Source: an uncultured Chloroflexia bacterium
GTDB taxonomy: Bacteria; Chloroflexota; Limnocylindria; Limnocylindrales; CSP1-4
Assembly (NCBI GenBank): GCA_963749705.1
Contig: CAVVNQ010000015.1
Span: 64,001 to 128,000, forward strand
DNA: 64,000 nucleotides
Direction of reading: 5' to 3'
Positions 27,628 to 48,706 of this stretch are shown here, in pieces. Position 1 is the stretch's first letter. Each line of letters starts with the position of its first letter. Both the position numbers and the translations under genes were made by a program. The notes beneath the pieces are model-generated. The model did no database searches and was not told the DNA's origin. It worked only from the letters and a program-made list of their open reading frames with translations.

Positions 27628-27657
27628 TCCTTAGAAATCGCCTATGGCCTTCCTTAG
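27628..27657 (-). promoter_or_regulatory. Putative LuxR-type activator site upstream of tusA-dsrE
   Basis: tccttag at 27628 and 27651 with cctatgg between. Confidence 0.5.
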
Positions 27658-27678
27658 GCCGATGGTCATAATCCGCGG

Positions 27679-30600
27679 ATGAACGCGCGGATCTCGAGTC
27701 CCGTGTTCGTCGGGCGTGGCGATGAGCTCCAGCGGCTGCAGGCCATCCTGGCGGACGCGCTCGAGGGGAACGTGGGAACGGTCCTCGTCGGCGGCGAGGC
27801 GGGGGTCGGGAAGACGCGGCTTCTCTCGGAGTTCCGTGCGCGTGCCCTGGCCGCCGGGCTTCGGGTTCTGGACGGCGGGTGCGTGGACCTTGGAGATGGG
27901 GCACGTCCGTACGATCCCTTCGTGGCCGCGCTTCGGCCGTGGCTGAAGTCGCTGGCGCCGGACGAGTTCGAGCGGATCGTCGGGCCGGCTCGTACCGCGG
28001 TGCTGCAACTGATTCCCGACCTGGAGACCGAGGGCCGTGATGCGGCTTCGGCCGACGCACCCACGTCGGCGATGCAGTCGACGCTCTACCTCCAGGTCCT
28101 GGGGCTCATCGAGCGCGTGGCCGCCGAAGCGCCGACCGTCATCGCGTTGGAGGACCTTCATTGGTCGGACCGATCGACGCGCGACCTCCTCCGGTTCCTC
28201 GTACGCAATCTCACCCGCGCCCGCGTCATGATGATCGGGAGCTACCGCACGGACGAGCTGAATGAGCGGCACCCGTTCTGGACGATGCTCGCGGAGCTGG
28301 CGCGCAGCGGGCAGGTGCACCGTGTTGAGCTCGCACGGTTCACGCGGGCCGAGGTCCACGACCAGCTCGCGGGCATCCTCGGCCAGTCCCCCGACCGCCG
28401 TCTCGTCGCCCGTCTCCACGACCGCGGGGGTGGCAACCCGCTATTCACGGAGGAGCTGGTAGCCATCGGCGAGCCCGGGGAGCAACGACTCGGCCTGACG
28501 CTGCGAGAGATGCTCCTCGCCAGGGTCGGCGCGCTGTCCGCCGCATCGCGAGAGCTCCTTGGCGTGGTTGCGGTCGCCAACCAGTCAGCGCGACACGATG
28601 TGCTGGCCATGGTCACCGGGATGGACCAGGCGGGGATCGCCGTCGCGCTGCGGGAGGCAATCGATCGTCATCTGCTGGTGACCGCCGAGGACGAGGTCAT
28701 GCGGTTCCGCCACGGGCTGATGCAGGAAGCGGTCTACGCGGAGCTGTTACCCGGCGAACGCGTGGCCCTGCACGCCGGGGTCGCAAGAGCCCTCGAAGCC
28801 CTGCACGCCGATCTCGACATGGATGCCACGGTCGCCACAGAGCTGGCCCACCATTGGTATGAGGCACGCGATGGACGCAGGGCGTTGGAAGCCCTGCTGC
28901 GCGCGGGCCAGGCGGCGGAGCGAATGTTCGCCTTCGGGAACGCGTTTGCGCACTACGACCTGGCGCTGGGCCTGTGGCCGGTCGACACGCCCTCGGTCGG
29001 CGGGATCACGCTTCCGGACCTGGGGGCGCGGACGGCAGAGGCGGCCGCCCTGTCCGGGGCATACGATCGGGCGATTGGCCTGGTGCGGGCTGCACTCGAA
29101 AGCGAACCGGCTGCCGAGGTCGATCCGATCCGCACCGGGACCCTGCTCGAACGGCTCGCCGCATACCACCTCGGGTGGGGCAACCCTGATGCCGCCCACC
29201 CGGCCGCGAGCCGCGCGCTCGAGCTGCTCCCGACTGCACCGCCGTCCGCGGCGCGCGCGCACGCGCAGGGCATCCTGGCCCAGGCGCTCGGACTGCAGTG
29301 CCACTTCGATGAGTCGAACCGACTGGCGGAGGAGGCGCTGGCGAATGCGCAGCTCGTCGGCTCGGCGGAGGCAGAGATCCGCGCGCTCGGCTGCATCGGT
29401 CGCAACGCAGCGGCGGTCGGAGATGCGGCCTCCGGCATTGAGACCCTGCGCCACGCATTGGCGTTCGCGCGCTCCGTAGCAGACTTCCCTGGCGCCGCCG
29501 AGATCTCCATCGAGCTGGTACTGGCACTCCACTGGGCAGGAGACCTCGAAGAGGCGTGCAGGGTCGCCGATGAGGGCATCGTCGAGAGTGGCCGCTGGGG
29601 AGCGGAGGGACTCGCCAACTCACTTCGCGCCCTGCGAGGGCAGTCTGCGTTCCTGCTCGGGCGCTGGGATGAGGCGGACGAATGGATCGCGAGCGCGCTC
29701 GAGAGGGATCCGGTCGGATCTCCGGGCGTCCTGGCACATGGTGCCCGCGCGCTCGTCGACGTGGGCCGCGGCGATTTGGACTCGGCCGCGGAGCACCTCG
29801 AAATCGTGTTGCTGATGTGCCGGCAATTCACCGCCAGCTTCTACGGATGGACTGATCTGTACTCGAGCATGGCCCTCCTCTCGATCGCCCGCCAGCAGCC
29901 GTCTCAGGCCATCGACACGGTGCGGGATGCCGTCGCGCTGTCAGCCGACCCCGACCACGAGGTCCACATGCGGGTGTGCCATCGGCTGGCGATCCGCGCC
30001 GCGGCCGACCTCGCGGAGGTCGCGCGACCTCTGGGCGACACGGCGGGCCTGGAGGAGGCGCTTGCGATCGGTCGCGAGTTCTACGACCGGCTGCAGCGCC
30101 ACTCGCAGGTCGTGCGGGCGCTGCCTGGTGGGGGCGATCCGCACCTGGCCCTCGACTCGGCGCTCGGCAAGGCCGAGCTGAGCCGGGTCACGGGTCAGCC
30201 GGACGCAGCAGCCTGGGCAGCTGTGGCGGCCGCAGCCGACGAGCTGCGACATCCCTACGAGGCCGCCTACGCCCATTTCCGCCAGGCCGAGGCACTCCTG
30301 CTCGCACGCGGGTCACGCGCGATCGCACTCGCAGCTGCCGTAAAGGCGCACGAGATCGCGCGCCGCCTGGGGGCTGCTCCCCTGGAACTGGAGATCGAAC
30401 GGCTGGCCCGACGGTCACGGCTCGACCTTGCCCGCCCGGCCGCGGCCCCCGAGCGAGTGGACGTCGGTCCGCCGGTCGGCCGTGCGATCCCGTTCCAGCT
30501 GACACGGCGCGAGCAGGATGTGCTGGAGCGCCTCACTCTCGGGTACACGAATCGCGAGATCGCCACCGAACTGTTCATCAGCGAGAAGACCGCCAGCGTG

Positions 30601-30756
30601 CATGTCTCGAACATCAAGTCGAAGCTGGCGGCGAACGGCCGCGCGGAGATCGCCGCGATCGCGGTTCGTCTCGGCCTCGTGTCCGACCCGGCTGAGGGGG
30701 ACGCGATGGCTGAACCGACGGAAGCTGGTTCGGTGCGCGCAGTGCCCGGGGCCTGA
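27679..30756 (+). CDS. Large ATP-binding LuxR regulator (AAA/STAND ATPase, TPR-like region, LuxR HTH)
   Basis: FVGR..EL, GEAGVGKTRL, LEDLHWSD, GGNPLF, LTRREQDVL..GYTNREIA..LFISEKTASVHVSNI. Confidence 0.95.
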   Translation: MNARISSPVFVGRGDELQRLQAILADALEGNVGTVLVGGEAGVGKTRLLSEFRARALAAGLRVLDGGCVDLGDGARPYDPFVAALRPWLKSLAPDEFERIVGPARTAVLQLIPDLETEGRDAASADAPTSAMQSTLYLQVLGLIERVAAEAPTVIALEDLHWSDRSTRDLLRFLVRNLTRARVMMIGSYRTDELNERHPFWTMLAELARSGQVHRVELARFTRAEVHDQLAGILGQSPDRRLVARLHDRGGGNPLFTEELVAIGEPGEQRLGLTLREMLLARVGALSAASRELLGVVAVANQSARHDVLAMVTGMDQAGIAVALREAIDRHLLVTAEDEVMRFRHGLMQEAVYAELLPGERVALHAGVARALEALHADLDMDATVATELAHHWYEARDGRRALEALLRAGQAAERMFAFGNAFAHYDLALGLWPVDTPSVGGITLPDLGARTAEAAALSGAYDRAIGLVRAALESEPAAEVDPIRTGTLLERLAAYHLGWGNPDAAHPAASRALELLPTAPPSAARAHAQGILAQALGLQCHFDESNRLAEEALANAQLVGSAEAEIRALGCIGRNAAAVGDAASGIETLRHALAFARSVADFPGAAEISIELVLALHWAGDLEEACRVADEGIVESGRWGAEGLANSLRALRGQSAFLLGRWDEADEWIASALERDPVGSPGVLAHGARALVDVGRGDLDSAAEHLEIVLLMCRQFTASFYGWTDLYSSMALLSIARQQPSQAIDTVRDAVALSADPDHEVHMRVCHRLAIRAAADLAEVARPLGDTAGLEEALAIGREFYDRLQRHSQVVRALPGGGDPHLALDSALGKAELSRVTGQPDAAAWAAVAAAADELRHPYEAAYAHFRQAEALLLARGSRAIALAAAVKAHEIARRLGAAPLELEIERLARRSRLDLARPAAAPERVDVGPPVGRAIPFQLTRREQDVLERLTLGYTNREIATELFISEKTASVHVSNIKSKLAANGRAEIAAIAVRLGLVSDPAEGDAMAEPTEAGSVRAVPGA

Positions 30757-36036: not shown

Positions 36037-36485
36037 GGCGTGGCACAACGTGCGGAACTCAGGGTCCTGACACGCGGACCCTCGCCGCTCCCAACGGATC
36101 TGCAGATCGTCGACGATCGCACCGAGAGGACGACCGCGACGCGACACCGATCCAGGCCGACAACTCCGGCCCCGATCGATCGCGGACCTGGATCCGATGG
36201 CGCAGGTAGCTGCAACCACGCCCGATCCGGGCCGAGCACGCCGAACTCGCGTGGCTCGGGCCGAACCTCCGGGGGCTGCCATCGACCCTGCCTGAGACGG
36301 CGGCCGCCAGGGGCGGCGACGTGCGCGTGTCCTGATCGGAAGGAGTGCGGTGCGGCCGTGCTCCGGTGGTAGATAGGCGGTGCGCCGAGATCGTTCTCGA
36401 TCGAAATTGCCCCTGCTCGCCGGCAGCCAATCTCGCTGCGTCTGGCCATGGCGGGGCTCCAGGCTTGTCCACAGGAGAAGAGCCA

Positions 36486-37772
36486 GTGAGAAGTCGTCCC
36501 ATCACCCTGTCCGCCGTGGCGCTGATCTCGGTCTTCGTCGCCGCGTGCGGTTCCTCTGCCGCCACGCCATCGCCGTCCGCCGCGCCCGCGTCGAGCGCGC
36601 CGGCCAGCGCGGCGCCCTCGGCAGCGGCCTCCGAGTCCCCGTCGTCGTCGCCTTCGGCGCTGAGCGTGGGTTCATTCAATTCGAGCTTCTCGGCAATGGC
36701 CGATCTTGCGTCGGTGACAGCTGCCGGCAGTGGGCTCGTCGGCGTGATCCTGCCGGACGCAACCACCTCGGCCCGCTACACCAGCTATGACCTCCCGTAC
36801 CTCAAGCAAGCCTTTGAAGCGGCCGGGTACGCCGCATCGGACTTCAAGATCGACAATGCCTCGGGCACGGCCACGACCGAGCTCGCCCTCGCCCAGGCCG
36901 ACATCACGGCCGGGGCCAAGGTCCTGCTGGTCGACCCGCTCGACAGCACGACCGGCAACCAGATCCAGGCGGCCGCGGCGGCCGCCGGCGTGGCGATGAT
37001 CAGCTATGACCGCGCCACGTTCCAGGGCACCAACACCTACTACGTCAGCTTCGACAACGTCCAGGTCGGCAAGCTGATCGGCCAGGGCTTCATGCAGTGC
37101 GTCACCGACTGGGGCGTCAAGAACCCCCAGGTGTTCACCCTCGACGGCGGCCAGGACACCGACCCCAACGCGATCGACTTCGCCAAGGGCTACAACTCGG
37201 TGATCTGGGGCCAGGAGGTCGCGCAGGTCCCGAAGGGCACGACCAACAGCGCCGGAATGAAGCTCATCGATGAGCAGATCGCCCCGGCCTGGAACAACAA
37301 GACGGGCGGCACGATCTTCCAGCAGGCCTACACGGCCAACCCGTCGATCAACGCCACGGTCGAGGCCAATGACGGCCTCGCCGGCGCGGCCATCGGCGTC
37401 CTCAAGTCAGCCGGGGTCCCGGCCAAGACGGTGCCCACCACCGGGCAGGACGCGACGCTCCAGGGCATGGAATACGTGCTCCAGGGCTACCAGTGCGGCT
37501 CCGTATACAAGCCGGTCTACCTCGAGGCCCAGGCGGCCGTCGCCCTGGCCACGTACCTGCGGGCCGGCCAGACGCCGCCCGCCACGCTGATCAACGGAAC
37601 CACGACCGATCCGACCAACTCGGCTGCCACGCAGCCGGCCGTGCTGCTGACCCCGTACTGGGTCAACGCCGCCAACATGGAATCGACGGTCATTCAGGAC
37701 AAGTTCGTGTCGGTGACGGACCTGTGCGCCGCCGTCGGCGCCGACCTCTGCCTGGCCTCGGGCATCAAGTAG
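36486..37772 (+). CDS. Sugar ABC transporter substrate-binding lipoprotein (XylF/ChvE-like)
   Basis: Lipobox VAAC, Ser/Ala/Pro linker, ISYDR, YVSFDNVQVG, ANDG, TGQDA, SVYKP. Confidence 0.92.
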   Translation: MRSRPITLSAVALISVFVAACGSSAATPSPSAAPASSAPASAAPSAAASESPSSSPSALSVGSFNSSFSAMADLASVTAAGSGLVGVILPDATTSARYTSYDLPYLKQAFEAAGYAASDFKIDNASGTATTELALAQADITAGAKVLLVDPLDSTTGNQIQAAAAAAGVAMISYDRATFQGTNTYYVSFDNVQVGKLIGQGFMQCVTDWGVKNPQVFTLDGGQDTDPNAIDFAKGYNSVIWGQEVAQVPKGTTNSAGMKLIDEQIAPAWNNKTGGTIFQQAYTANPSINATVEANDGLAGAAIGVLKSAGVPAKTVPTTGQDATLQGMEYVLQGYQCGSVYKPVYLEAQAAVALATYLRAGQTPPATLINGTTTDPTNSAATQPAVLLTPYWVNAANMESTVIQDKFVSVTDLCAAVGADLCLASGIK

Positions 37773-37780
37773 CCCGCGGC

Positions 37781-37824
37781 CCCGGCGACGGCAGCGGCCC
37801 GATGTGCACGCTGCCGTCGCCGGG
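37781..37824 (+). other. Intercistronic 16-bp perfect stem-loop after the SBP gene
   Basis: cccggcgacggcagcg ... cgctgccgtcgccggg. Confidence 0.75.
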
Positions 37825-37870
37825 ACACCTCCCCCCGCCCCGCCCCGCGCAGCCCACAGAGGACGAGCCA

Positions 37871-38722
37871 ATGGACCTGTCGGCGCAACGAGATCCCGTC
37901 CCTGTTGGCAAGGCCGGTGCGATCTCGAATCCGCCGGTCGCGCCGGGCTCCGAGCCGTTGCTCCGGCTTCGGGGCGTGAGCAAGCATTTTGGCGCGGTCC
38001 AGTCGCTGTATCGCGTCGACCTCGACCTGCCCGAGGCGCAGGTCACGGCACTGTGTGGCGACAACGGCGCAGGCAAGTCCGTGCTCACCAAGAGCATTGC
38101 CGGCATTCACCAGGTCGACGAGGGCGAGATGTTCTGGGAGGGCCGCCCCGTCCACATCCGGAACCCCAACGACTCAGCGGCGCTGGGGATCGAGACCGTC
38201 TACCAGGACCTCGCCCTCGCCGACAACCTCGACATCGTCCAGAACATGTTCCTCGGACGCGAGCGCCTCTCGCGGGGCCTGCTCGACGAGGACAGCATGG
38301 AGCGCGCGGCGGCCGAGACGCTCGCGAGCCTGCGGGTCACCACCGTGCGCTCGATCCGGCAGCCCGTCGCAACCCTGTCCGGCGGCCAGCGCCAGGCGGT
38401 CGCGGTAGCCAAGGCCGTCATGTGGAACTCGAAGCTCGTGATGCTCGACGAGCCGACGGCCGCCCTGGGCGTTGCGCAGACGAGGATGGTGCTCGATCTC
38501 ATCCGGCGGCTGAAGGACCACGGCCTCGCGGTCATGGTCGTCTCGCACAACCTCAACGACGTGTTCGAGGTAGCGGACCGGATCGCGGTGCTCCGCCTCG
38601 GGCGAATGGTCGCCCAGGATCGGATCTCGGCATTCGATCGCGAGAGCGTCGTCGACTACATGACCACCGGCAGGTCGAACCGCGACGTCGCGGGGCCTGC
38701 CACCAGCGACGGACTGGACTGA
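37871..38722 (+). CDS. Sugar ABC transporter ATP-binding protein
   Basis: GDNGAGKS, VYQDLAL, LSGGQRQ, LDEPTAALG. Confidence 0.95.
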   Translation: MDLSAQRDPVPVGKAGAISNPPVAPGSEPLLRLRGVSKHFGAVQSLYRVDLDLPEAQVTALCGDNGAGKSVLTKSIAGIHQVDEGEMFWEGRPVHIRNPNDSAALGIETVYQDLALADNLDIVQNMFLGRERLSRGLLDEDSMERAAAETLASLRVTTVRSIRQPVATLSGGQRQAVAVAKAVMWNSKLVMLDEPTAALGVAQTRMVLDLIRRLKDHGLAVMVVSHNLNDVFEVADRIAVLRLGRMVAQDRISAFDRESVVDYMTTGRSNRDVAGPATSDGLD

Positions 38723-38725
38723 CCC

Positions 38726-40078
38726 ATGACCCCCAACGAACCCGAGCCGGCAGCCGCGGCACCGAACGAGATCGGGATCGACGACGAATCTGCGCCGGAC
38801 CTGACCGCGGCGGCTGTCGAGGCGATTCCCCCGGCGATCGCGGCGCAGTCACTGCGCGAGTACCTGCGGGCGTGGGTCGCGCGGGTGCGAGGTGGCGACG
38901 CCGGCGTCCTGCCGGTGGCGCTCGCCCTGGTCGCGGTGGGGGTGGTGTTCACCGTGGTCAGCCCCAACCACGTCTTCCTGTCCGCTGGCAACCTGGTCAA
39001 CCTGTTCGACCAGAGCGCGGTGTTCATCGTGCTCGCGATGGGCGAGGGATTCGTGCTGCTGCTGGGCGAGGTCGACCTCTCGATCGGCTACGTCGCGGCG
39101 ATCGGCGGGATCGTGGCGGCCCAGCTGGTGCAACCCAACGTGAACCTTCCCTGGGGCCTGGCGATCCTGGCGGCGCTTGCGGCGACGGCCGCCATCGGGG
39201 GCATCCAGGGGCTGATCATCACCAAGCTGGGTATCCCCGCCTTCGTGGTCACGCTGGCGGGCTACCTGATCTGGTTCGGCGTCATGATCGTCCTGCTCGG
39301 AGCCGCCGGCGGCGTGGGCATCACCAGCACGGTGCTGCCGAACCAGCAGGCGCTGTACGGAATCGTCTACAGCTACATCGACCCCACGCTCGGCTGGATC
39401 GGGCTCGTCGTGATCGTCGGCGTGGTGGGTGCCATGATGTGGCGGCGGGACGCAGGGCGGCGGCGAAGCGGCCTGGTCGCCCCTCCGGTCGGGCTGACCG
39501 TCGCGAAGATCGTGGCCGTGGCCGTGGCCGGCATCGCGGTCGTCGCCATCTGCAACCTGAACCGCGGCAGGTTCCTCCCGATCATCGGCACCCCCTGGGT
39601 CATCCCGCTCGTCCTGGCAGTGCTCGTGCTCTGGGCGACCCTGCTCGAGCGGACCCAGTTCGGGCGCCACGTGTACGCCGTGGGGGGCAACCCGGAAGCG
39701 GCCCGCCGGGCGGGCATCAATGTCTCCCGCGTGCGCACCCTGGGCTTCGTCCTGTGCTCGATGACCGCCGGGATCGCCGGCATCATCTATGCCTCACAGC
39801 TGGGCGGCATGACAACCAACATCAACGGCGGCCAGCTCGTCCTGTACGCAATCGCAGCGGCCGTCATCGGCGGCACCAGCCTGTTCGGCGGCCGGGGCCG
39901 GGCGATCCACGGCCTCCTCGGCGGCCTCGTCATCGGGGCCATCTACAACGGCCTGTACCTGCTGGGGCTCCCGATCCAGTACCAGCTGATCGTGACCGGG
40001 CTGGTGCTGCTCGCCGCCGTCAGCGTCGACTCGCTGTCGCGCCGCGGCGCCGGCTCGGGAAGCCTCGTCCGCGCCTGA
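38726..40078 (+). CDS. Sugar ABC transporter permease (XylH-like)
   Basis: GEVDLSIG, IPAFVVTLAG, FGRHVYAVGGN.EAARRAGI, IAAAVIGGTSLFGGRG. Confidence 0.95.
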   Translation: MTPNEPEPAAAAPNEIGIDDESAPDLTAAAVEAIPPAIAAQSLREYLRAWVARVRGGDAGVLPVALALVAVGVVFTVVSPNHVFLSAGNLVNLFDQSAVFIVLAMGEGFVLLLGEVDLSIGYVAAIGGIVAAQLVQPNVNLPWGLAILAALAATAAIGGIQGLIITKLGIPAFVVTLAGYLIWFGVMIVLLGAAGGVGITSTVLPNQQALYGIVYSYIDPTLGWIGLVVIVGVVGAMMWRRDAGRRRSGLVAPPVGLTVAKIVAVAVAGIAVVAICNLNRGRFLPIIGTPWVIPLVLAVLVLWATLLERTQFGRHVYAVGGNPEAARRAGINVSRVRTLGFVLCSMTAGIAGIIYASQLGGMTTNINGGQLVLYAIAAAVIGGTSLFGGRGRAIHGLLGGLVIGAIYNGLYLLGLPIQYQLIVTGLVLLAAVSVDSLSRRGAGSGSLVRA

Positions 40079-40264
40079 CGGGAGGTACGGAGGGCGATCG
40101 GCCGCGTCGACCTTTGGCACCCGGGTTCGCCGACCATTGCCCCTCGACCCGCCCACGATCGAGAGGGACGCTCCGGAGTGACGCCGATCCCAACCGGATC
40201 TCGCGGCCCCGGCGCCGGGCGAACCAGCCCAACTGCTGATTCCCGGGGGAGAAGAGGGATCGCC

Positions 40265-41530
40265 ATGTCGCCCATCCGCAGGCTGCTCCTCGCAGCCGGT
40301 TCCGTCGGCTTGCTATCCGTTGTGTTCGGGGCGGCCGCGGTCGCCGGCTCACCGTCGTCGATGGAGGCGCTGGGCAAGGCGATCTTCTTCGACGAGAACC
40401 TCTCGATCAATCACAACGAGTCATGCGCGACCTGCCACGGGCCCGACTACGGCTTCACCGGGCCGACTGACCTCATCAACGCGCACGGAGCGGTGTACGA
40501 GGGCTCGATCGCGGGCAGGTTCGGGAACCGCAAGCCCCCCAGCAGCGCGTATGCAGCGCTCAGCCCGATCCTCCATCTCGACCGCCATGGCACCTGGGTC
40601 GGCGGCAACTTCTGGGATGGGCGGGCGACCGGCGAGAAGCTCGGCAACCCCGCCGCGGACCAGGCCCAGGGACCGTTCACCAATCCCGCGGAGCAGGCCC
40701 TGCCGGATTCGGCCTGCGTCGTGTACCAAGTGTCCATGGCCGCGTACGCCGACGACTTCACGTCGGTCTGGAAGATCGACCTGAGCTCGGTGGTCTGGCC
40801 ATCGGGCATCGAGACCACCTGCTCGACCGAAGGCGGGGAGGTCCTCCTGTCCGACGCGGACGAGGCGACCGTCTCGACCGCCTTCGACGACATCGCGCTT
40901 TCGATCGCGGCCTACGAGGGATCGCCGGAGGTCAACGCGTTCTCGTCCAAGTACGACCTGACCTTCGGCGGCAGGGCCAGGCTCACGAAGGAGGAGCAAC
41001 GCGGCCTCGCGCTGTTCCGGGGCAAGGGCGGCTGCACGGCCTGCCATCCGGCCAACGGCAAGCAGGCGCTGTTCACGGACTTCACGTTCGACAACCTCGG
41101 CGTTCCCGCAAACCCCGAGAATCCGGCGCTGCTCGCGGATTCCTCGTACGTCGACGACGGCCTGGGTGCGTACCTCGAGAGCGCCGGCTACCCCGAGTCC
41201 GTGTACCAGGATGAGATGGGCAAGCAGAAGGTCCCCACGCTGCGGAACGTGGGCCTGAGCCCATTGGAAACGTCCACCAAGGCCTACACCCACAACGGGT
41301 ATTTCAAGACGCTCGAGGGGATCGTCCACTTCTACAACACGCGCGACGTCCTGCCGCGATGTGACGGCGCCTACACCGAGGCGGAGGCACTGGCAGCCAA
41401 CTGCTGGCCGGCGCCCGAGGAGTCGATGAACGTCAACCATGACGAGCTCGGCGACCTCGGCCTCAGCGTGGACGACGAGGCCGCGATCGTGGCCTACCTG
41501 AGGACGCTCTCGGACGGCTACGGGAACTGA
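40265..41530 (+). CDS. Secreted di-heme cytochrome c peroxidase / MauG-family protein
   Basis: Signal peptide, LGKAIFFD, CATCH, FWDGRA, CTACH, KVPTLRNV, YTHNG. Confidence 0.92.
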   Translation: MSPIRRLLLAAGSVGLLSVVFGAAAVAGSPSSMEALGKAIFFDENLSINHNESCATCHGPDYGFTGPTDLINAHGAVYEGSIAGRFGNRKPPSSAYAALSPILHLDRHGTWVGGNFWDGRATGEKLGNPAADQAQGPFTNPAEQALPDSACVVYQVSMAAYADDFTSVWKIDLSSVVWPSGIETTCSTEGGEVLLSDADEATVSTAFDDIALSIAAYEGSPEVNAFSSKYDLTFGGRARLTKEEQRGLALFRGKGGCTACHPANGKQALFTDFTFDNLGVPANPENPALLADSSYVDDGLGAYLESAGYPESVYQDEMGKQKVPTLRNVGLSPLETSTKAYTHNGYFKTLEGIVHFYNTRDVLPRCDGAYTEAEALAANCWPAPEESMNVNHDELGDLGLSVDDEAAIVAYLRTLSDGYGN

Positions 41531-41537
41531 CCACCTG

Positions 41538-41574
41538 CGGCGGCGGGAGTCCGATGAGACGGTTCCCGCCGCCG
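41538..41574 (+). terminator. GC-rich hairpin, probable terminator
   Basis: cggcggcggga ... tcccgccgccg directly after the stop codon. Confidence 0.6.
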
Positions 41575-41622
41575 TTCTCCCGAGCGGCGGCTCGAACCGG
41601 TGATCCGGGCTAGATTCGGGGC

Positions 41623-41949
41623 ATGCCCCCGCAGGCGTATGCCCTCGTCACGCTGTTCGCGCTGTGCTCGGTCGCGCTGGGCTGGGCCGCGACCCGGATC
41701 GCGGCTCGCATCGGCGGTCCGGCGACGCGCGCGGCCTACATCATGCCGATCGCGGCCGGCTTCCTCGCCTTCTACCTGATCGGGCACAAGCTGGGGATCG
41801 CCGTGGGACCGGAGGTCTCGCTGTTCGGCTTCCAGGTGTCGCTGTTCGGCGACCTGGCGATCGGCTTCGCGGCCGCGTTGCTGGCGGCGCTGGCCCAGGC
41901 GGGCTGGCTGCGGGTGCGGGCGTCGCAGCGCCCGGACCCCGCGCGCTGA
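41623..41949 (+). CDS. Small membrane protein (3 TM)
   Basis: Hydrophobic ORF with typical codon bias; TAGATT -10 just upstream. Confidence 0.75.
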   Translation: MPPQAYALVTLFALCSVALGWAATRIAARIGGPATRAAYIMPIAAGFLAFYLIGHKLGIAVGPEVSLFGFQVSLFGDLAIGFAAALLAALAQAGWLRVRASQRPDPAR

Positions 41950-41965
41950 CCGGCAGCCGGCAGCC

Positions 41966-42808
41966 TCAACGCCGCAGCGACGGGGGGACTTCGCCGGGAT
42001 CATCGCCGGTGGCGACCGGCAGGCCGGACCGCGACCAGTCGCTGTACGACCCCGGGTAGAGCAGGGGATCGGGCAGCCCGGCGACCCGCATCGCAAGCGC
42101 GTCATGGCAGGCGTTGACACCGCTGCCGCAGGCGACGACGACATCGTTGCCGAGCGCCTCGAAGCGGTCGCGAAGATCCGCGGCCGCTCGAAATCGACCG
42201 CTGGCGTCGAGATTGCCGGCGGTGGGCCGGCTGAGCGCGGTCGGGATGTGGCCGGCGACGGGATCGATCGGCTCGACGTCGCCGCGATAGCGCTCCCGCG
42301 CCCGAGCATCGACGATCGCGAAGTTGCCGAGCCTCGACATCAGCGCCGCCTGGTCGATCGTCCGGGACCAGCGCTCGCGCAGCTGGAGCTTCCCCGGTGC
42401 GGGTGCCGGCACGGTCGTCGTGAGCCCGCCACCGGCCGCGATCCAGGCCTGGATCCCGCCGTCGAGCACCTGGACCTGGTCGTGCCCGAGGTCGTCGAGC
42501 ATCCACCACAGGCGGGCGGCGACCGTGCCGCCGGCATCGTCGTAGGCGACGATGTGGCTCGACGAATCGAAGCCGAGCGCCTCCATCCGCCGGAGGAAGG
42601 TAGCCGGATCCGGCAGCGGGTGACGACCGGGTCCTTCGCTCGCGACGATGTCCGTGTCGAGGTCCACGAATACGGCACCCGGGAGGTGTCCCGCGTCGTA
42701 GTCGCGGCGGCCCTTCGACGGGTCGGACAGCCACCAGCGAACGTCGGCGAGGCGGAGCTCCGGATCGTCGATCCGGGCAAGCAGCTCGCCGGCGGAGATC
42801 AGGCTCAT
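41966..42808 (-). CDS. Tandem-rhodanese sulfurtransferase (SseA/3-MST family)
   Basis: GHLPGA, GRHPLP, AARLWW, LDGG, CGSGV active loop, LYPGSYSDW. Confidence 0.93.
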   Translation of the reverse strand: MSLISAGELLARIDDPELRLADVRWWLSDPSKGRRDYDAGHLPGAVFVDLDTDIVASEGPGRHPLPDPATFLRRMEALGFDSSSHIVAYDDAGGTVAARLWWMLDDLGHDQVQVLDGGIQAWIAAGGGLTTTVPAPAPGKLQLRERWSRTIDQAALMSRLGNFAIVDARARERYRGDVEPIDPVAGHIPTALSRPTAGNLDASGRFRAAADLRDRFEALGNDVVVACGSGVNACHDALAMRVAGLPDPLLYPGSYSDWSRSGLPVATGDDPGEVPPSLRR

Positions 42809-43234: not shown

Positions 43235-43849
43235 TCAGCAGTAGTCGGTGAAGCCGTGGAGGGGCTGCCGGCCGGTCAGCACCAGGTAGCCCGCCAGGAG
43301 ATCGTCGCAGCTGTTCTGGTAGATGCGGACCATCGCGATCGGCCGGTCGATGAGGCCCCACACCATGATCTCCGCGGCCTGCTCGGTGCCGTTCTCGTGC
43401 CACGGGGCCTTCTCATAGTCCCGCCAGTAGGTCCAGCCCCGCAACGCCCGGAACCGCGCCCTGGTCTCCTCGGTGAGGGTGTGGTCGGCCCAGGCATGGG
43501 CGGTCTCATGGAGGATCATCACCTGGGTGCCGAAGTCCAGGCTCGTGGTGCACAGCTCGATCACGTTCAGCGCGCCGTCGGGGTGCTGCAGGCCGTCGCG
43601 GCCGTTGCACGGCGACATGTTGCCGTCGTGGTAGCGGTAGCGAATGGGAGGAAGCTCCAGGCCGGCCTCGGCGAACAGGGCGACCGCCCAATGCGCCCAG
43701 GTGGCAAGCTGGTCGGGCATGTCGACCAGCTCGAGCGAACCGGGTTGAGGGGCCGCAGGAGCTACGGCAGCGGCCGTGGCGCCGGTGCCGAGGGCGACGA
43801 GGGCGACGAGGGCGATGATGGCAACTGCGCGTGTGAGATGGTTCCGCAT
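43235..43849 (-). CDS. Secreted protein with HExxH zinc-metallopeptidase motif
   Basis: Signal peptide AIIALVALVALGTGATA; ILHETAHAW and downstream E..AE. Confidence 0.7.
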   Translation of the reverse strand: MRNHLTRAVAIIALVALVALGTGATAAAVAPAAPQPGSLELVDMPDQLATWAHWAVALFAEAGLELPPIRYRYHDGNMSPCNGRDGLQHPDGALNVIELCTTSLDFGTQVMILHETAHAWADHTLTEETRARFRALRGWTYWRDYEKAPWHENGTEQAAEIMVWGLIDRPIAMVRIYQNSCDDLLAGYLVLTGRQPLHGFTDYC

Positions 43850-43980
43850 GGCGCGGACCATCCGACCGGCGACTTCATGCCCACGTGTGAAGCGCTCAAG
43901 GGAAGCTTTGCGAGCCTAAAGGCGGCCTTAAGTCGCGGGTTCCAGGCTCTGCGACTCGGTTCGTGAGAGGAAGCGGGATC

Positions 43981-46900
43981 GTGGAGTTCAGGGTTCTCGG
44001 ACAGCTCGGGATCGTCGACGGTCATCGTCCGATCACACTTGGTTCGCACAAGCAGCGGTCGTTGCTCGCCCTCCTCCTCATCAACCACGGCTCCGTGCTG
44101 TCTGCGGATCGGCTCCTCGACGAGCTGTGGGGTGACGAGGCCTCGGATCGTCAGAACGCACTGTGGGTGCACGTCTCCAACCTGCGGACGGCGCTGGAGC
44201 CGGATCGGGAGGCCAGGTCGGAGGGGTCCATCGTTCGCACCCGAGCGCCCGGGTACATCCTCGACGTCGACGGGGAGCAGATCGACGCGGTTCGGTTCGA
44301 GCACCTGGTCGACGACGGGCGCGCACTGTTGGGCGAGGACCCGGAGGCGGCGTCGGCGACCCTGCGCGGCGCCCTGGAGCTGTGGCGGGGACGGGCCTAC
44401 GAGGAGCTCACCTACGAGGCGTTCGCCCAGGCAGAGATCAGCCGGCTCGACGAGCTGCGTCTCGAAGCCGTCGAGGCTCGTATCGAGGCGGATCTCGCAC
44501 GAGGGCGCGACCGCGAGCTGGTGTCGGAGCTCCAGAGCCTGACCAGGCAGCATCCGTTGCGGGAACGGTTCACCGCCCAGCTCATGCTCGCCCTGTATCG
44601 CGCTGGTCGCCAGTCCGAGGCGCTGCGCGCCTATCAGGAGCTGCGGTCGCGGCTGGGGAGAGAGCTCGGCATCGACCCTTCCCCCGAGGTCAAAGGATCT
44701 CGAGGGCAGGATCCTCACCGAGGATCCCTCGCTGCTGGGCGCGAGTCGCCGATCGGCGGTCGGGGTCGAGCCGGGGCTGGTCATCCGCGGCTACGAGATC
44801 CGGGAGCAGCTGCCGCTGGGCGGCGTGGGCACGGTGTACCGGGCGTTCCAGCCGGCCGTGGGACGGGAGGTGGCGATCAGGGTCATCCCGTCGGCGCTCG
44901 CCGACGATCCCGGATTCATCAGGCGCTTCGAGGGTGACGCCCGGCTCGTCGCCGCACTCGAGCACCCGCACGTCGTGCCGCTCTACGACTTCTGGCGCGA
45001 GCCCGGCGCCGCCTACCTCGTGACCCGGCTCACGCACGGCGGCACGCTGGCCGACGTCGTGGCCCGCAGCGCGCTGCCCGAGGCCGACGCCGCTGGGGTT
45101 CTCGGACAGGTGGCCGGCGCCCTGCGCGCCGCCCACGATGGTGGCGTCGTCCATGGCGCCATCGGGCCTGAGCAGGTGGCGCTCGATGCCGACGGCAACG
45201 CCTATCTGGCCGGTCTCGGGCTGCGGGCGGCGGCTACGGCCGCGCACGCGGTGGGGCCGACCACCGCCCCGGAGGTGATCGACGGATCGCCGCCGACGCC
45301 TGCTTCGGATGTGTATGCGCTGGGCGTGGTGGTCGCCCAATGCCTGACGGGCCTCACCGGGCGCATCGAGCAGGTCGAGGGCGCGTTGCCGCGCTCGGTG
45401 GCCGCGGTGGTCGCATCCGCAACCAACCCCGATCCTGCACGCCGACCGTCGGCCATCGACTTCGCTATGGCCTTCGCAACGGCCACCCAGCCGGGCGCCG
45501 CAACGGCGCCGTTGCCCGACGTCGAGGTGGAGAACCCGTACCGCGGCCTCGCCGCATTCGCCGCCGCGGATGCCGCCGTGTTCCTCGGCCGGCAACGAGT
45601 CGTCGACCGGCTGGTGGCTCGCCTCGGGCAACCGGGGGCGGCGGGGCAGATCATCGCCCTGGTTGGTCCCAGCGGGAGCGGGAAGTCGAGCGTGGTTCAG
45701 GCCGGGCTGCTGCCTGCCCTGGCGGACAACGCCCTCCCCGGCTCCGCACAGTGGTTCGTCACGTCGGCGGTGCCGGGGCGGCAACCGTTCGAGGCACTGG
45801 AGGCGGCATTGCTGCGGGTGGCGATCGATCCGCCGCCAACGCTCTACGAGCAGCTCTCGTCCGGGGAGAACGGGCTGCGCCGGGCGGTGCGCCGGGTCCT
45901 CCCCGATGACGGCTCGCAGCTGCTGCTCGTCGTCGATCAGTTCGAGGAGCTGTTCACGCTGACCGACCCGCAGGAGGCGGCGGCGTTCCTCGATGCCCTG
46001 GCCGGGGCCGTCGCCGACGCCCACAGCAGGGTGCGGGTCGTCGCCACGCTCCGTGCCGACTTCTACGACCGGCCGCTCCAACACCGGCGCTTCGGCGAGC
46101 TGCTGCGCGAGGGAACCGAGGTCATCACCCCGATGTCCCCGGAGGAGCTCGAGCAGGCCATCAGCGGTCCGGCGGAGCCGCTCGGCGTTCACTTCGCACC
46201 TGCCGTCGTCGCCGACATCGTGCACGAGGTCGAGGGCCGCCCAGGCGCCCTGCCGTTGCTCCAGTACGCCCTCACCGAGCTGTTCGAAGCGCGGGCCGGG
46301 TCGATCATCACCTCGGAGACCTATCGCCAGATCGGCGGCGTCACCGGTGCGCTGGCGTTGCGGGCCGAGGCGCTGTTCGCCGAATGCGACGAGCGCGAGC
46401 AGCTGGCCGCCCGGCAGGTGTTCCTCCGCCTCGTCACCCTCGGCGAGGGCGCCCTCGACACGAGGCGGCGGGTGCTGGTCTCCGAGCTCGACGACCTGCC
46501 GCTCCATCCGCTCGCGGTGCGGGCGGTGCTCGATCGGTTCTCCGCCCACCGGCTGCTCACCTTCGACCGGGACCCGGTGACGCGTGGACCGACGGTGGAG
46601 ATCTCCCACGAGGCGCTGCTGACCGAGTGGGACCGGCTGCAGGGATGGATCGACGGCGCCCGCGAGGACGTGCGCAACCAGCGCCGCCTCGCCGACGCCA
46701 TGGGGGAGTGGGCCGGCTCGGGACGACGCGACGACCTGTTGCTCTCCGGCGGCCGGCTCGCCCGCTTCACCGCCTGGGCGGCGGACGCCGATGTCCAGCT
46801 CGCCAGCGGGGAACGGGGATTCCTCGATGCCAGCATCGAGCTCGCCGAACGGGCCGAACGCCTCGAACTGGAGCGTGAGTCGCAACGGGTCGCCGCCCAG

Positions 46901-48706
46901 CGCCAGGCTCGGCAGCGGCTGCGGCTGACGGCGGTCGCCGGCGTGGCCGCGGTGATCGTCGGTGCGCTCGCCGTCGTCGCCTTCCTCCAGCGACAAGCCG
47001 CCCAGGGCTCAGAGCGCCAGGTCACCGCCACCCTGCGGGCGAACGATCTCGCCACGTCGTCACGACTCGTGCTCCGGGACGACGTGCGCCTCGCCCTGCG
47101 CCTGGCGATCGAGTCGGCCGGGGCCACCACCGAGTTCGGGGTGGTCACCCCGGAGGCGATGGATGCCCTCCACTGGGCGGTCCAGGAGGCCAACATCGTG
47201 TACCCGGCCGGCGACACGACGCCGGTCGCCGTCCGTCCCGGGCCGCGCAGCCTCACCGGCGTGTATGCACTGCCACCCAACGAGCTCATCGCGCTCGCCC
47301 AGTCGGGCCCGGTCGGGTCATACCTCGGCGATCAGTGCCCGACCTACCTCGGCACCGAGGAATGTCCGGACCCGCTGCGCAGCTTCCCGGCCGGGTTGTC
47401 GATCGCCGGCGGCGACGAAGCCTATGGGGTGGTGCAACCCAAACCGGGGACCCTCACCGGGGCGAAGGTGGAGCTCGTCTCCGACTTCACGGTGAGCAAC
47501 GAGGACCTGGCATCCGAGCTGAGGTCGCTCGAAGGCCTCACCGGCATCGTCGTGTCACACCGCGCCGCACCCGTGTGGGACGAGCTCAGCTCGCGAAAGG
47601 ACGCCAACGACCCGTTCCCCGATCTGATCATGGGGGGGTATCCCACGCAGCTCGCCGATTGGCGGTCCGACGGGCTGATCGACCTCTCGTCGTACCTTGA
47701 CATGAGCCGGATCCGGTCCGACTTCGGGGCGAACCAGGTGAAGCTGGGCTCCATCGACGGTGGCTACTACATGCTGCCCGTCGCCAGCGACATGAAGGGC
47801 ATGGTCTACTACCCCAAGGCCGCGTTCGAGGCGGCCGGCTACCGCGTCCCGCAGACGTGGGACGAGCTGCTGGCGCTGTCGCGGCAGATGGTCGCCGACG
47901 GGCGCACGCCGTGGTGCTTCGCCTGGGAGGACGGCGGGGGTTCGGGCTGGCCGGGCACCGATCTGCTGGAGACCCTCGTGCTCCGCGTGGGGGGGACCGA
48001 CGCCTACGACGCGTGGATCGCCCACACGATCCCGTTCGACGCCCCGGTCATCCGCCAGGCCGGCCAGATGGCATCGACCCTGCTCCTCAGCGACGGGTTC
48101 GTGCGCGGCGGAGCGGGGGCCATCAGCAGCACGCCCGTCTTCGACAGCCTCGCTCCACTCCTGGAGGACGAGCCCGGGTGCTGGATGGTGCTCCAGTCGA
48201 GCCTCATGCTGACGACCCGACCCGACGTCAACAGCGTGGCCGGCAGGAGCCTCGATTGGTTCCCGTTCCCGCCGATCGAGCGGGGCTCGGACGTCATGCC
48301 GCAGTACGGGGGCTCCAGCTACGTGCTGGCATTCAACGACCGTCCCGAGGTGCGTGCGTTCATCTCGCACGTCGCCTCGCCACAGTGGGGCCGGGTGTGG
48401 GCTGCGACGGCGACCACGTTCGTCTCGCTGAACGACCGCTTCGACGTCCGGCAGTACGGAGGGGCGGTCTCGGCGGCGCCGGCCGGGGTCCTCCGGTCGA
48501 TCGGCGAGGCCGCGCGGGAGGCGATCGCTGCCGGGGTGTGGCGCTACGACGCCTCCGACCTCATGCCGGGCGCGATCGGGCTGTACGACGACAACGGCAA
48601 CCCCGGTGCGTTCTTCACCGGCATGCTCGATGTCGTCGACGGCCGCAGGACGATGGACCAGATGCTCACCGACGTCGAGGCGAAGTGGCAGTCGCTCGGC
48701 GGGTGA
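43981..48706 (+). CDS. SARP/BTAD regulator fused to pseudokinase, STAND NTPase, TM helix and sugar-binding domain; one apparent +1 frameshift at 44692-44694
   Basis: FRVLGQL..KQRSLLALL (wHTH), ALELWRG..HPLRE..LYRAGRQSEAL (BTAD), kinase-like GGVGTVYRA, NPYRGL..GPSGSGKSS..VVDQFEELF (nSTAND1), TM, TWDELL..TPWC..GWPGTD (SBP). Confidence 0.9.

Follow-up and report, generated by a model that had tools for sequence, protein, structure and literature searches.

Transcription activators of the ToxR and CadC type are built of a cytoplasmic N-terminal OmpR-type winged helix, one transmembrane (TM) helix and an extracytoplasmic sensor; they are 300–500 amino acids (aa) long and are not known to contain a BTAD, kinase or STAND domain or to have solute-binding proteins (SBPs) of the ABC type as sensors. 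The same plan, but with the addition of a BTAD, a kinase-like domain, a STAND NTPase and an ABC-type SBP, is predicted for the protein dealt with here, a sensor-regulator encoded at positions 43981–48706 (+ strand) of a 64,000-nucleotide stretch of DNA (hereafter "the window"; positions 64,001 to 128,000 of contig CAVVNQ010000015.1, assembly GCA_963749705.1) from an uncultured Chloroflexia bacterium. The domains follow one another in the order OmpR-type winged helix, BTAD, kinase-like domain, nSTAND1 NTPase, TM helix, juxtamembrane module of ~140 aa and CUT1-type SBP, and the evidence presented below suggests that this one gene may specify a complete signaling device in which the SBP would be the receptor.

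As far as the cytoplasmic half is concerned, the comparison is with AfsR and the other large SARPs of Streptomyces (SARP, NB-ARC NOD and TPR, with AfsK as the kinase), which likewise begin with an OmpR-type winged helix and a BTAD, behind which a STAND NTPase controls activation. In the case of AfsR, the NOD and TPR domains are described to exert an inhibition that is relieved by ATP binding, a mutant that mimics phosphorylation by AfsK to form more oligomers and to bind the afs box more strongly, and the phosphorylated protein to have a higher ATPase activity (PMC10936776). AfsR is the substrate of a Ser/Thr kinase, and the window protein has a kinase-like domain fused in cis. In contrast to AfsR, its NTPase belongs to the nSTAND1 clade instead of NB-ARC, it has no TPR, and its sensor is predicted to lie outside the cell behind a TM helix. 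Nor does it qualify as an AfsR orthologue: the NCBIfam equivalog NF053617 (SARP, NB-ARC and TPR, full length) scored 158.1 bits against a cut-off of 1430 and covered residues 7–261, that is the SARP head, all NCBIfam matches of the window protein being partial. The SARP classes listed in one review (small, medium, large and SARP-LAL; PMC10972967) are all cytoplasmic, as are the AfsR-like NB-ARC + TPR proteins and the SARP-LAL listed in a 2026 survey (bioRxiv 10.64898/2026.09.02.748808).

Other known systems share single elements with the window protein. In MalT and GutR a STAND NTPase links a small carbohydrate signal to transcription activation, as is proposed here (PMC10936776), but these proteins, which respond to ATP together with an inducer that is a sugar or a polyol, are wholly cytoplasmic, bind the inducer on a sensor arm inside the cell and carry a LuxR-type DNA-binding domain at the C-terminus. 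Transporter-type SBPs serve as extracytoplasmic receptors in SBP-dependent or SBP-fused sensors such as GltB–GtrS, LuxP–LuxQ and TorT–TorS (PMC8050422), and a fusion between a Ser/Thr kinase and an extracellular SBP is reported for Streptomyces coelicolor (PMC1262709). The outputs described for such sensors are histidine kinases, chemoreceptors, GGDEF/EAL proteins and Ser/Thr kinases, and in these accounts neither a SARP nor a STAND NTPase is described as the partner of an SBP; the terms "Trans_reg_C" and "transcriptional regulator" do not occur in the main text of the review on SBP signaling (PMC8050422). Finally, the nSTAND1 proteins of conflict systems (Kaur et al. 2021, PMC8195603), some of them noted to have kinase heads, possess an NTPase of the same clade and the same head–NTPase–sensor logic, whereas the window protein has a transcription activator as its head and, as its sensor, an SBP on the far side of a TM helix; nSTAND1 is tied to conflict systems both in that article and in a later preprint (bioRxiv 10.1101/2023.09.22.558884). 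In agreement with the initial annotation of the locus, whose author knew of no experimental characterization of this architecture, a literature search found no published study of a SARP–STAND–TM–SBP fusion, although the supplementary architecture tables of PMC8195603 and of the 2026 survey could list it. The parts are all of known kinds (SARP-STAND proteins, tethered winged-helix activators, SBP receptors, kinase–SARP pairs), their combination being missing from the classifications consulted.

Integrity of the gene

As assembled, the region, whose G+C content is 71–73%, contains two + strand open reading frames (ORFs), 43963–44937 (324 aa) and 44825–48706 (1293 aa), in frames one base apart. 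The first encodes a SARP up to ...RELGIDPSPEVK (...LGIDPSPEVK) and then continues for ~80 codons of nonsense rich in Gly, Arg and Pro; in the second frame, open from ~44600, the sequence ...KDLEGRILTEDPSLL... is encoded, with the BTAD ending seen in the consensus of the homologues. The switch between frames is located at GAG GTC AAA GGA (44685–44696), and if the AAAG at 44691–44694 is taken as one step, the frame is open without interruption for 1580 codons from the GTG at 43963. The GTG at 43981 is the likely start, since GAGAGGAAG is found 8 nt upstream and the homologue N-termini begin there as (M/V)E(F/Y)RVLG; from this codon to the stop ending at 48706 the joined gene comprises 1574 codons, so that the single frame of this length, proposed in the initial annotation upon removal of one A, is borne out.

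The frameshift site (44691–44693, + strand) is an AAA with one base more than is present in environmental DNA. Logan contigs from four metagenome runs of marsh and soil (X1, X2, X3 and X5; three studies), among which the source sample need not be represented (at best, 0.54 of the sampled words were shared), were aligned to 43900–45500, and in all four runs one base is left out at 44692. The extra A is absent from all four contigs that extend across the site by 31 letters or more in either direction (two from X1, one each from X3 and X5; three studies); a fifth contig, from X2, also spans the site with only 26 letters on its left side. Two of the bridging contigs are nearly identical to the window (5 other letters in 603 for X1 and 3 in 427 for X3), the remaining two representing more distant strains. 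None of the contigs aligned from the four runs spans the site with the extra A in place; one X2 contig stops at 44693 and is uninformative. The source assembly consists of 22 contigs totaling 3.6 Mb and is 88% complete. Since the environmental contigs lack the additional base and the homologues are fused (see below), the extra A is either a mistake made in sequencing or assembly or a mutation private to this strain, and the gene is whole in the population. A programmed frameshift was considered and discarded, as relatives and environmental contigs are simply in frame.

Domain organization and conservation of the family

The joined protein gives matches to five Pfam families, all above the curated cut-offs, and the order SARP-BTAD, kinase-like domain, STAND NTPase and SBP put forward at the outset is confirmed. 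Along the + strand, the OmpR-type winged helix (Trans_reg_C, PF00486; 56.4 bits against a cut-off of 26.2) occupies 44044–44262 (residues 28–100) and is followed at 44281–44715 by the BTAD, the SARP activation domain (PF03704; 154.9 bits, cut-off 22.1), so that the two domains by which a SARP is recognized stand side by side at the N-terminus. The BTAD spans the frameshift site, with positions 1–139 of the 146 of the profile matched before it and the homologue consensus recognizable on either side of the break. A degenerate kinase-like domain (Pkinase, 71.3 bits) extends over 44792–45469 and the nSTAND1 NTPase (PF20703; 397.8 bits, E 1e-118, profile positions 1–378 of 379) over 45536–46732, with the P-loop GPSGSGKSS at 45665–45691 and the Walker B motif VVDQFEE at 45929–45949. 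The TM helix (46931–46987) and the juxtamembrane module (46988–47407) precede the SBP (SBP_bac_1, PF01547; 48.7 bits) at 47408–48703. All the motifs quoted earlier (REVAIRV, VVHGAIGPEQ, AGLG, GPSGSGKSS, VVDQFEE) were found; no effector-associated or death-like domain was detected in the window protein by the Pfam scan.

A homologue search over the full length listed at least 120 proteins, one of which (P0006) is the 1290-aa gene call of the window itself. Among the matches listed, 116 of the 119 other proteins are 1500–1700 aa long, 45–64% identical over ~99% of the length and endowed with the same Pfam set, the exceptions being shorter, apparently partial forms and one protein of 1851 aa; thus the two halves, whose separation in homologues would have spoken against a single gene, are fused. 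The names assigned automatically to these homologues are of the kind "extracellular solute-binding protein" or [quoted passage not shown]. The taxon labels of the matches listed are Acidimicrobiia, Acidimicrobiales and Ilumatobacter, and the same labels recur, with rare exceptions, in 36 loci from species-representative genomes; judging from these labels, the architecture appears to be common in uncultured Acidimicrobiia. Several contigs among the matches listed carry two paralogues; the full-length members of the pairs P0011/P0017, P0023/P0080 and P0071/P0075 stem from contigs of identical recorded length (57016, 418337 and 34779 bases, respectively), which suggests that each pair consists of paralogues located on one contig.

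In the alignment of 117 full-length proteins, the window's included, the residues G, S, G, G, K, S and S of GPSGSGKSS and D, Q, E and E of DQFEE are invariant in 117/117, in keeping with the view that P-loop and Walker B are intact. The kinase-like domain is far less uniform. At the positions of the VAIK Lys, the HxD Asp, the catalytic-loop Asn and the DFG Asp the window protein has R, A, Q and G (its motifs being VAIR, HGAIGPEQ and AGLG, as had been noted), so that it does not have the residues of an active Hanks-type Ser/Thr kinase, and it is among the 16/117 that lack the Lys and both Asp. The term "pseudokinase" fits this protein but not the family, since 57 of the 117 members retain all four catalytic residues.

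Topology of the protein and nature of the ectodomain

The hydrophobic helix which the initial annotation had placed near 46920–46990 corresponds to one segment, AVAGVAAVIVGALAVVAFL, with a Kyte–Doolittle value of 2.73. All 117 family members possess at least one segment with a value of at least 1.6 aligned to that of the window, and 102 have exactly one. In the 15 residues preceding the helix the mean number of K+R is 5.26, as against 2.22 in the 15 that follow, the former exceeding the latter in 112/117. Cysteines amount to 0.11% of the residues before the helix and 0.83% after it; their number in the ectodomain is even in all 117 proteins (4 in 77, 6 in 31, 8 in 8 and 10 in 1), and four of them are invariant across the family alignment. 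Since this charge bias and paired cysteines are what is expected of such a protein, an N-in/C-out orientation with a disulfide-bonded ectodomain and the SBP outside the cell is predicted, and the extracytoplasmic location assumed for the SBP from the beginning is consistent with both statistics. Domain order, TM helix and charge and cysteine distribution thus reproduce, at the level of prediction, the plan of the ToxR-like activators with cytoplasmic N-terminal winged helix, one TM helix and extracytoplasmic C-terminal sensor.

The 572 residues that follow the helix were modeled by AF2 on the basis of a 45-row alignment, with a pLDDT of 95.5 and a pTM of 0.93. The juxtamembrane module consists of a long helix continuing the TM helix and of a small α/β unit with two invariant cysteines, while the rest of the model is a complete two-lobe SBP. 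When compared with the PDB by Foldseek, this fold matched over ~430 columns AcbH (E 1e-16, target TM-score 0.79) and ppGBP (0.82), followed by RafE, the chitin-oligosaccharide-binding NagB and the xylobiose-binding BxlE, the target TM-scores ranging from 0.76 to 0.82 for AcbH, ppGBP and RafE; by phmmer, the ectodomain matched AcbH with an E-value of 5.7e-16. Free-standing SBPs of 420–470 aa that are 33–40% identical to the ectodomain bear the automatic JGI label "alpha-glucoside transport SBP", a hint at the class of ligand and no more. Thus, as regards the sugar-binding domain initially proposed, its fold is a complete CUT1 one, while the word "sugar" derives from likeness in fold and sequence to CUT1 carbohydrate SBPs.

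No CUT1 permease is found near the gene, the window containing 0 of the 35 BPD_transp_1 matches of the genome and the nearest one being ~70 kb away, as anticipated by the remark that no permease is adjacent. Likewise, no permease is conserved beside the gene in an all-against-all ORF comparison of 28 loci (the window and 27 fetched loci of more than 12 kb, nine shorter ones being left out). A CUT2-type sugar ABC system (Peripla_BP_4, ABC_tran, BPD_transp_2), which has its own Peripla_BP_4 protein, is present 4–8 kb upstream; together with a di-haem cytochrome c peroxidase (CCP_MauG) and a rhodanese (− strand) it occupies positions 36345–42808 of the window, and none of the three is conserved beside the sensor gene in the other loci compared.

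An exchangeable outside module

The genome to which the window belongs contains three nSTAND1 genes above the Pfam cut-off, all with a SARP head and a TM helix. One paralogue of 1306 aa (L002:715–4632, contig C16) is composed of SARP, nSTAND1, TM helix and SBP_bac_1, without the kinase-like domain, and is 39% identical over the STAND–SBP part. The other (P0127, 1053 aa; L004:421–3579, contig C15, ~140 kb downstream of the window gene) has the same SARP–nSTAND1–TM arrangement but ends in an SBP of the Bmp/PnrA, i.e., nucleoside, type (PF02608, E 6e-36). This second type also constitutes a large family: nearly all of at least 120 matches listed are 1040–1110 aa long and combine PF00486, PF03704, PF20703 and PF02608, the taxon labels of the matches listed extending to Methylomirabilota, Limnocylindrales and one metagenome-assembled genome of the Patescibacteria group. 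At the opposite extreme are short forms of 706–747 aa (P0499, P0505 and P0514) which have BTAD and SBP_bac_1 but neither STAND nor kinase, with a clear TM helix between the two domains in two of the three (P0505 and P0514). These forms of ~730 aa are closer to the ToxR/CadC plan than is the window protein and would represent a minimal, ToxR-like SARP–TM–SBP version of it.

Since one paralogue carries a Bmp/PnrA SBP in place of the CUT1 one, the outside module appears to be swappable behind a SARP–STAND–TM chassis. Because two unrelated SBP families share this chassis and a minimal SARP–TM–SBP form exists, the SBP is best regarded as the receptor of the regulator; module swaps and minimal form would otherwise be hard to explain.

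A putative SARP box upstream of the gene

Inspection of the DNA preceding the start codon brought to light the repeat CTAAAGG-cggc-CTTAAGT, from which, and after the fact, a pattern consisting of the heptamer [CG][TC][TA][AT][AT]G[TCG] taken twice with a 4-nt spacer was written using eight related loci. The putative SARP box of the window (43905–43933, + strand) comprises GCTTTGC at 43905, CTAAAGG at 43916 and CTTAAGT at 43927 with a period of 11 nt, a fourth heptamer, CTCAAGG at 43895 (+ strand), being one base out of register; CAGGCT (43943–43948, + strand), a −10-like hexamer, begins 9 nt after the last heptamer. The pattern was searched in 37 upstream regions, namely the 220 nt preceding every N-terminus of a SARP that tblastn located in the window or the 36 loci, and the pair with 4-nt spacer was found in 14, compared with 0–1 for each of the other spacers from 0 to 11 and with an average of 0.11 in 500 shuffles, in which the highest count was 2; six of these 14 regions had played no part in deriving the pattern. 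A sequence nAnnnT, whose fixed letters are the two best-kept positions of the actinobacterial −10, is located exactly 9 nt past the second heptamer in 12 of the 14 regions, whereas the other offsets from 0 to 20 yield none, except offset 2 (four) and offset 20 (one). The distance between hexamer and start codon is 32–57 nt in 13 of the 14 regions and 86 nt in L024.

If the hexamer is set at −12 to −7, the heptamers fall at −39 to −33 and −28 to −22, and transcription is predicted to begin ~7 nt past position 43948. In the AfsR initiation complex the afs box extends from −40 to −19 and consists of two 11-nt direct repeats bound by a SARP dimer, the first 8 bp of each repeat being contacted by one protomer (PMC10936776), and SARP sites are in general heptamer repeats with a classical 11-bp period overlapping the −35 (PMC10972967). 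The heptamer positions fall within the first 8 bp of the afs repeats, so that the putative box is in the same register as that of AfsR; since a conserved arrangement of this kind lies before the gene itself, positive autoregulation is suggested.

Some side observations concern similar sequences elsewhere in the genome. No heptamer pair precedes the paralogues in the search of the own genome. The stricter form TAAG-N7-TAAG occurs five times (once in 23S rRNA), against 0–3 for other spacings; the other sites are C2:195957(+), C3:644744(−), C10:79317(+) and C17:18759(−), of which two share TAAGTCGCAG(G/A)TAAGCGG, and these might be boxes of another SARP. Within the window, a gene for a LAL-type regulator of 1025 aa (AAA_16 + GerE; 27679–30756, + strand) starts 6 nt past a CATAAT hexamer and is apparently leaderless; the box-like pair CCTATGG-cctt-CCTTAGG at 27641–27658, with CATAAT 8 nt after it, is among the few genome-wide matches of the pattern and could be either a second target of the SARP-sensor or a chance match.

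A secreted zincin-like neighbor

The comparison of the 28 loci revealed one conserved neighbor, a gene of ~210 aa present in 16 of them and mostly located directly upstream in divergent orientation; in two loci it is co-directional and just after the sensor stop, and in L043, where the match to the sensor is fragmentary, it is found elsewhere. No other cluster beyond the span of the sensor gene occurs in more than 7 of the 28 loci. In the window the gene (43235–43861, − strand) encodes 208 aa with a hydrophobic, signal-like segment at the N-terminus, an invariant HExxH with a Glu ~40 residues further on, and two invariant cysteines. In an alignment of 73 proteins E119, H122 and E160 are invariant and H118 is nearly so, while H, E, H and E are all invariant in the 15 copies from the loci. 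Its relatives number 1563 cluster representatives at E ≤ 0.001 and 526 at ≤ 1e-30; eight of them (P0247–P0252, P0254 and P0257), 345–420 aa long, contain two matched stretches and are tandem doublets.

Searches of Pfam, NCBIfam and PDB gave no placement in a family. Weak matches to zincins were obtained in a minority of the 73 members (M78 in 7, SprT-like in 5, M76 in 4; best Pfam E 3.7e-05, in 5/73), and the model (pLDDT 86) has as its best PDB match 4l7a, a putative zinc metallopeptidase, with E 0.04, 0 of 500 matches reaching E ≤ 0.001. From these features and from its adjacency, the neighbor is best described as a probable secreted zincin-like protein functionally linked to the sensor, of which it may be a target gene, a ligand-processing enzyme or a partner. 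A predicted complex between ectodomain and mature neighbor (residues 36–204) gave a score of 0.29 and a mark of 0.32 and, having been run with no controls, speaks neither for nor against an association.

Proposed mechanism and alternative explanations

The premise that a transporter SBP was repurposed as a receptor signaling to DNA through an NLR-like switch, contained in the initial annotation, is supported as far as fused homologues and a predicted outside SBP are concerned. From the anatomy of the protein, its conservation in the family, the predicted topology, the SBP fold and the promoter architecture brought out by the analysis we infer ligand binding, relay, oligomerization, DNA binding and activation, and we attribute a probability of about 0.6 to the resulting reading, namely that one gene encodes a membrane-tethered, self-contained signaling protein in which a ligand outside the cell operates a STAND switch that leads to SARP activation of its own promoter. 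According to this mechanism, the C-terminal CUT1-type SBP would bind a small, carbohydrate-like ligand outside the cell and close upon it; binding would be relayed by the juxtamembrane module and the single continuous TM helix to the cytoplasmic nSTAND1 NTPase which, like other STAND/NLR switches, would exchange nucleotide and self-associate. The SARP modules (winged helix and BTAD) would thereby be brought together on the direct repeats spaced by 11 nt that overlap the −35 of their own promoter, dimerize there and, with the protein still tethered, recruit RNA polymerase, as ToxR- and CadC-type activators do, the outcome being positive autoregulation. The secreted zincin-like gene, which shares the intergenic region or would belong to the same operon, would be the likeliest co-regulated or co-acting gene. 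The kinase-like domain would be the cis-fused counterpart of the AfsK–AfsR pairing, probably active in about half of the family, where the catalytic residues are kept and the fused kinase could play the part of AfsK, and a non-catalytic scaffold here; having lost these residues, it can only have a structural role in the window protein.

A broader proposal, to which we give somewhat less than even odds, is that these proteins form a class of "outside-in NLRs" in which a STAND switch, known elsewhere only in the form of intracellular receptors, is gated across the membrane by interchangeable ABC-transporter SBPs (CUT1 for sugars, Bmp for nucleosides) and acts on DNA directly through a SARP head, the autoregulation being positive. 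A complete and possibly bistable pathway from extracellular metabolite to promoter would then be contained in one polypeptide, and the secreted zincin-like neighbor could produce or destroy the ligand.

Several considerations weigh against the mechanism outlined above. The signal has to travel along just one TM helix, and no earlier example of a STAND switch operated from the cell exterior was found; it was in conflict (immunity) systems, and not in metabolic regulation, that nSTAND1 was defined (PMC8195603); the class of ligand is based on 15–20% identity to solved SBPs and on an automatic label; and the gene, broken as assembled, might be non-functional in this strain. As to the box, its pattern was derived from eight of the loci with hindsight, and 23 of the 37 regions do not have it, part of them lying before other SARP genes of these loci or in subfamilies that are more remote; CTTAAG, the core of the heptamer, is palindromic, so that strand and regulated direction are not fixed by the sequence alone; and since the pattern gives 11 matches in the own genome compared with 1–7 for control spacers, three of the 11 being at this locus and one in 23S rRNA, no regulon beyond the locus is evident.

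Alternative explanations have to be weighed against the same evidence. That the frameshift is genuine in this strain, which would then either make two products, a small unattached SARP (~240 aa) and a kinase-like/STAND/TM/SBP protein (~1290 aa), or carry a dead gene, is unlikely: the assembly does have the extra A, the gene caller recorded a 1290-aa product and none of the metagenome runs need be the source sample, but all the strictly bridging contigs, those nearly identical to the window included, lack the A, the homologues are fused, the break falls inside the BTAD with ~80 codons of nonsense following it in the first frame, and no start preceded by a ribosome-binding site was noticed for the second product, no search having been made for one. 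It is very unlikely that the ectodomain is primarily a tethered SBP feeding an ABC importer encoded elsewhere, with regulation as a side function that reports transport. Transport would be compatible with a complete CUT1 transporter fold, with free relatives that are transporter SBPs and with the 35 BPD_transp_1 matches of the genome, but it accounts neither for the lack of a CUT1 permease within ~70 kb and of a conserved adjacent permease in any of the 28 loci nor for the presence of two different SBP families behind one SARP–STAND–TM chassis, and would hardly explain ~990 cytoplasmic residues of a regulator.

The neighbor gene lends itself to a further scheme, in which the zincin-like protein would trim the ectodomain in a site-1-like manner and an intramembrane step would free the cytoplasmic part bearing the SARP. 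A secreted HExxH...E protein is indeed adjacent in 16 of the 28 loci and its weak likeness to zincin peptidases (4l7a; M78, SprT-like and M76) goes in this direction, and yet its membership in a peptidase family is nowhere significant, 12 loci do without it, no conserved site-2 protease is found nearby in the 28 loci and activators of the ToxR and CadC type are generally known to act tethered, so that proteolytic release has little likelihood. As to a role in immunity, in which the outside domain would sense an invader or something produced by a competitor, the nSTAND1 name comes from counter-invader systems whose heads are kinase, FHA, TIR or peptidase domains (PMC8195603), and nSTAND1 proteins are targets of diversity-generating retroelements (bioRxiv 10.1101/2023.09.22.558884); in the window protein, however, the N-terminal output is a transcription activator rather than a toxic effector, the sensor, far from being diversified, is an SBP for small molecules whose core is strongly conserved, with residues that are invariant or nearly so, and a conserved promoter box precedes the gene itself, all of which makes such a role extremely improbable.

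Implications

The architecture is uncharacterized, widespread and readily testable. SARP-STAND regulators such as AfsR have been studied intensively, but the natural signals that activate them are unknown; the sensor arm is here a recognizable small-molecule binding protein that can be purified alone, and therefore the chain from ligand to STAND to promoter can be tested directly. The predicted cognate promoter might be reused in a one-protein biosensor. If the proposed mechanism is true, a STAND/NLR-type switch would be operable from outside the cell through one membrane helix, and the Acidimicrobiia, abundant and largely uncultured bacteria of soil and water, would acquire a sensory system to which a function can be assigned.

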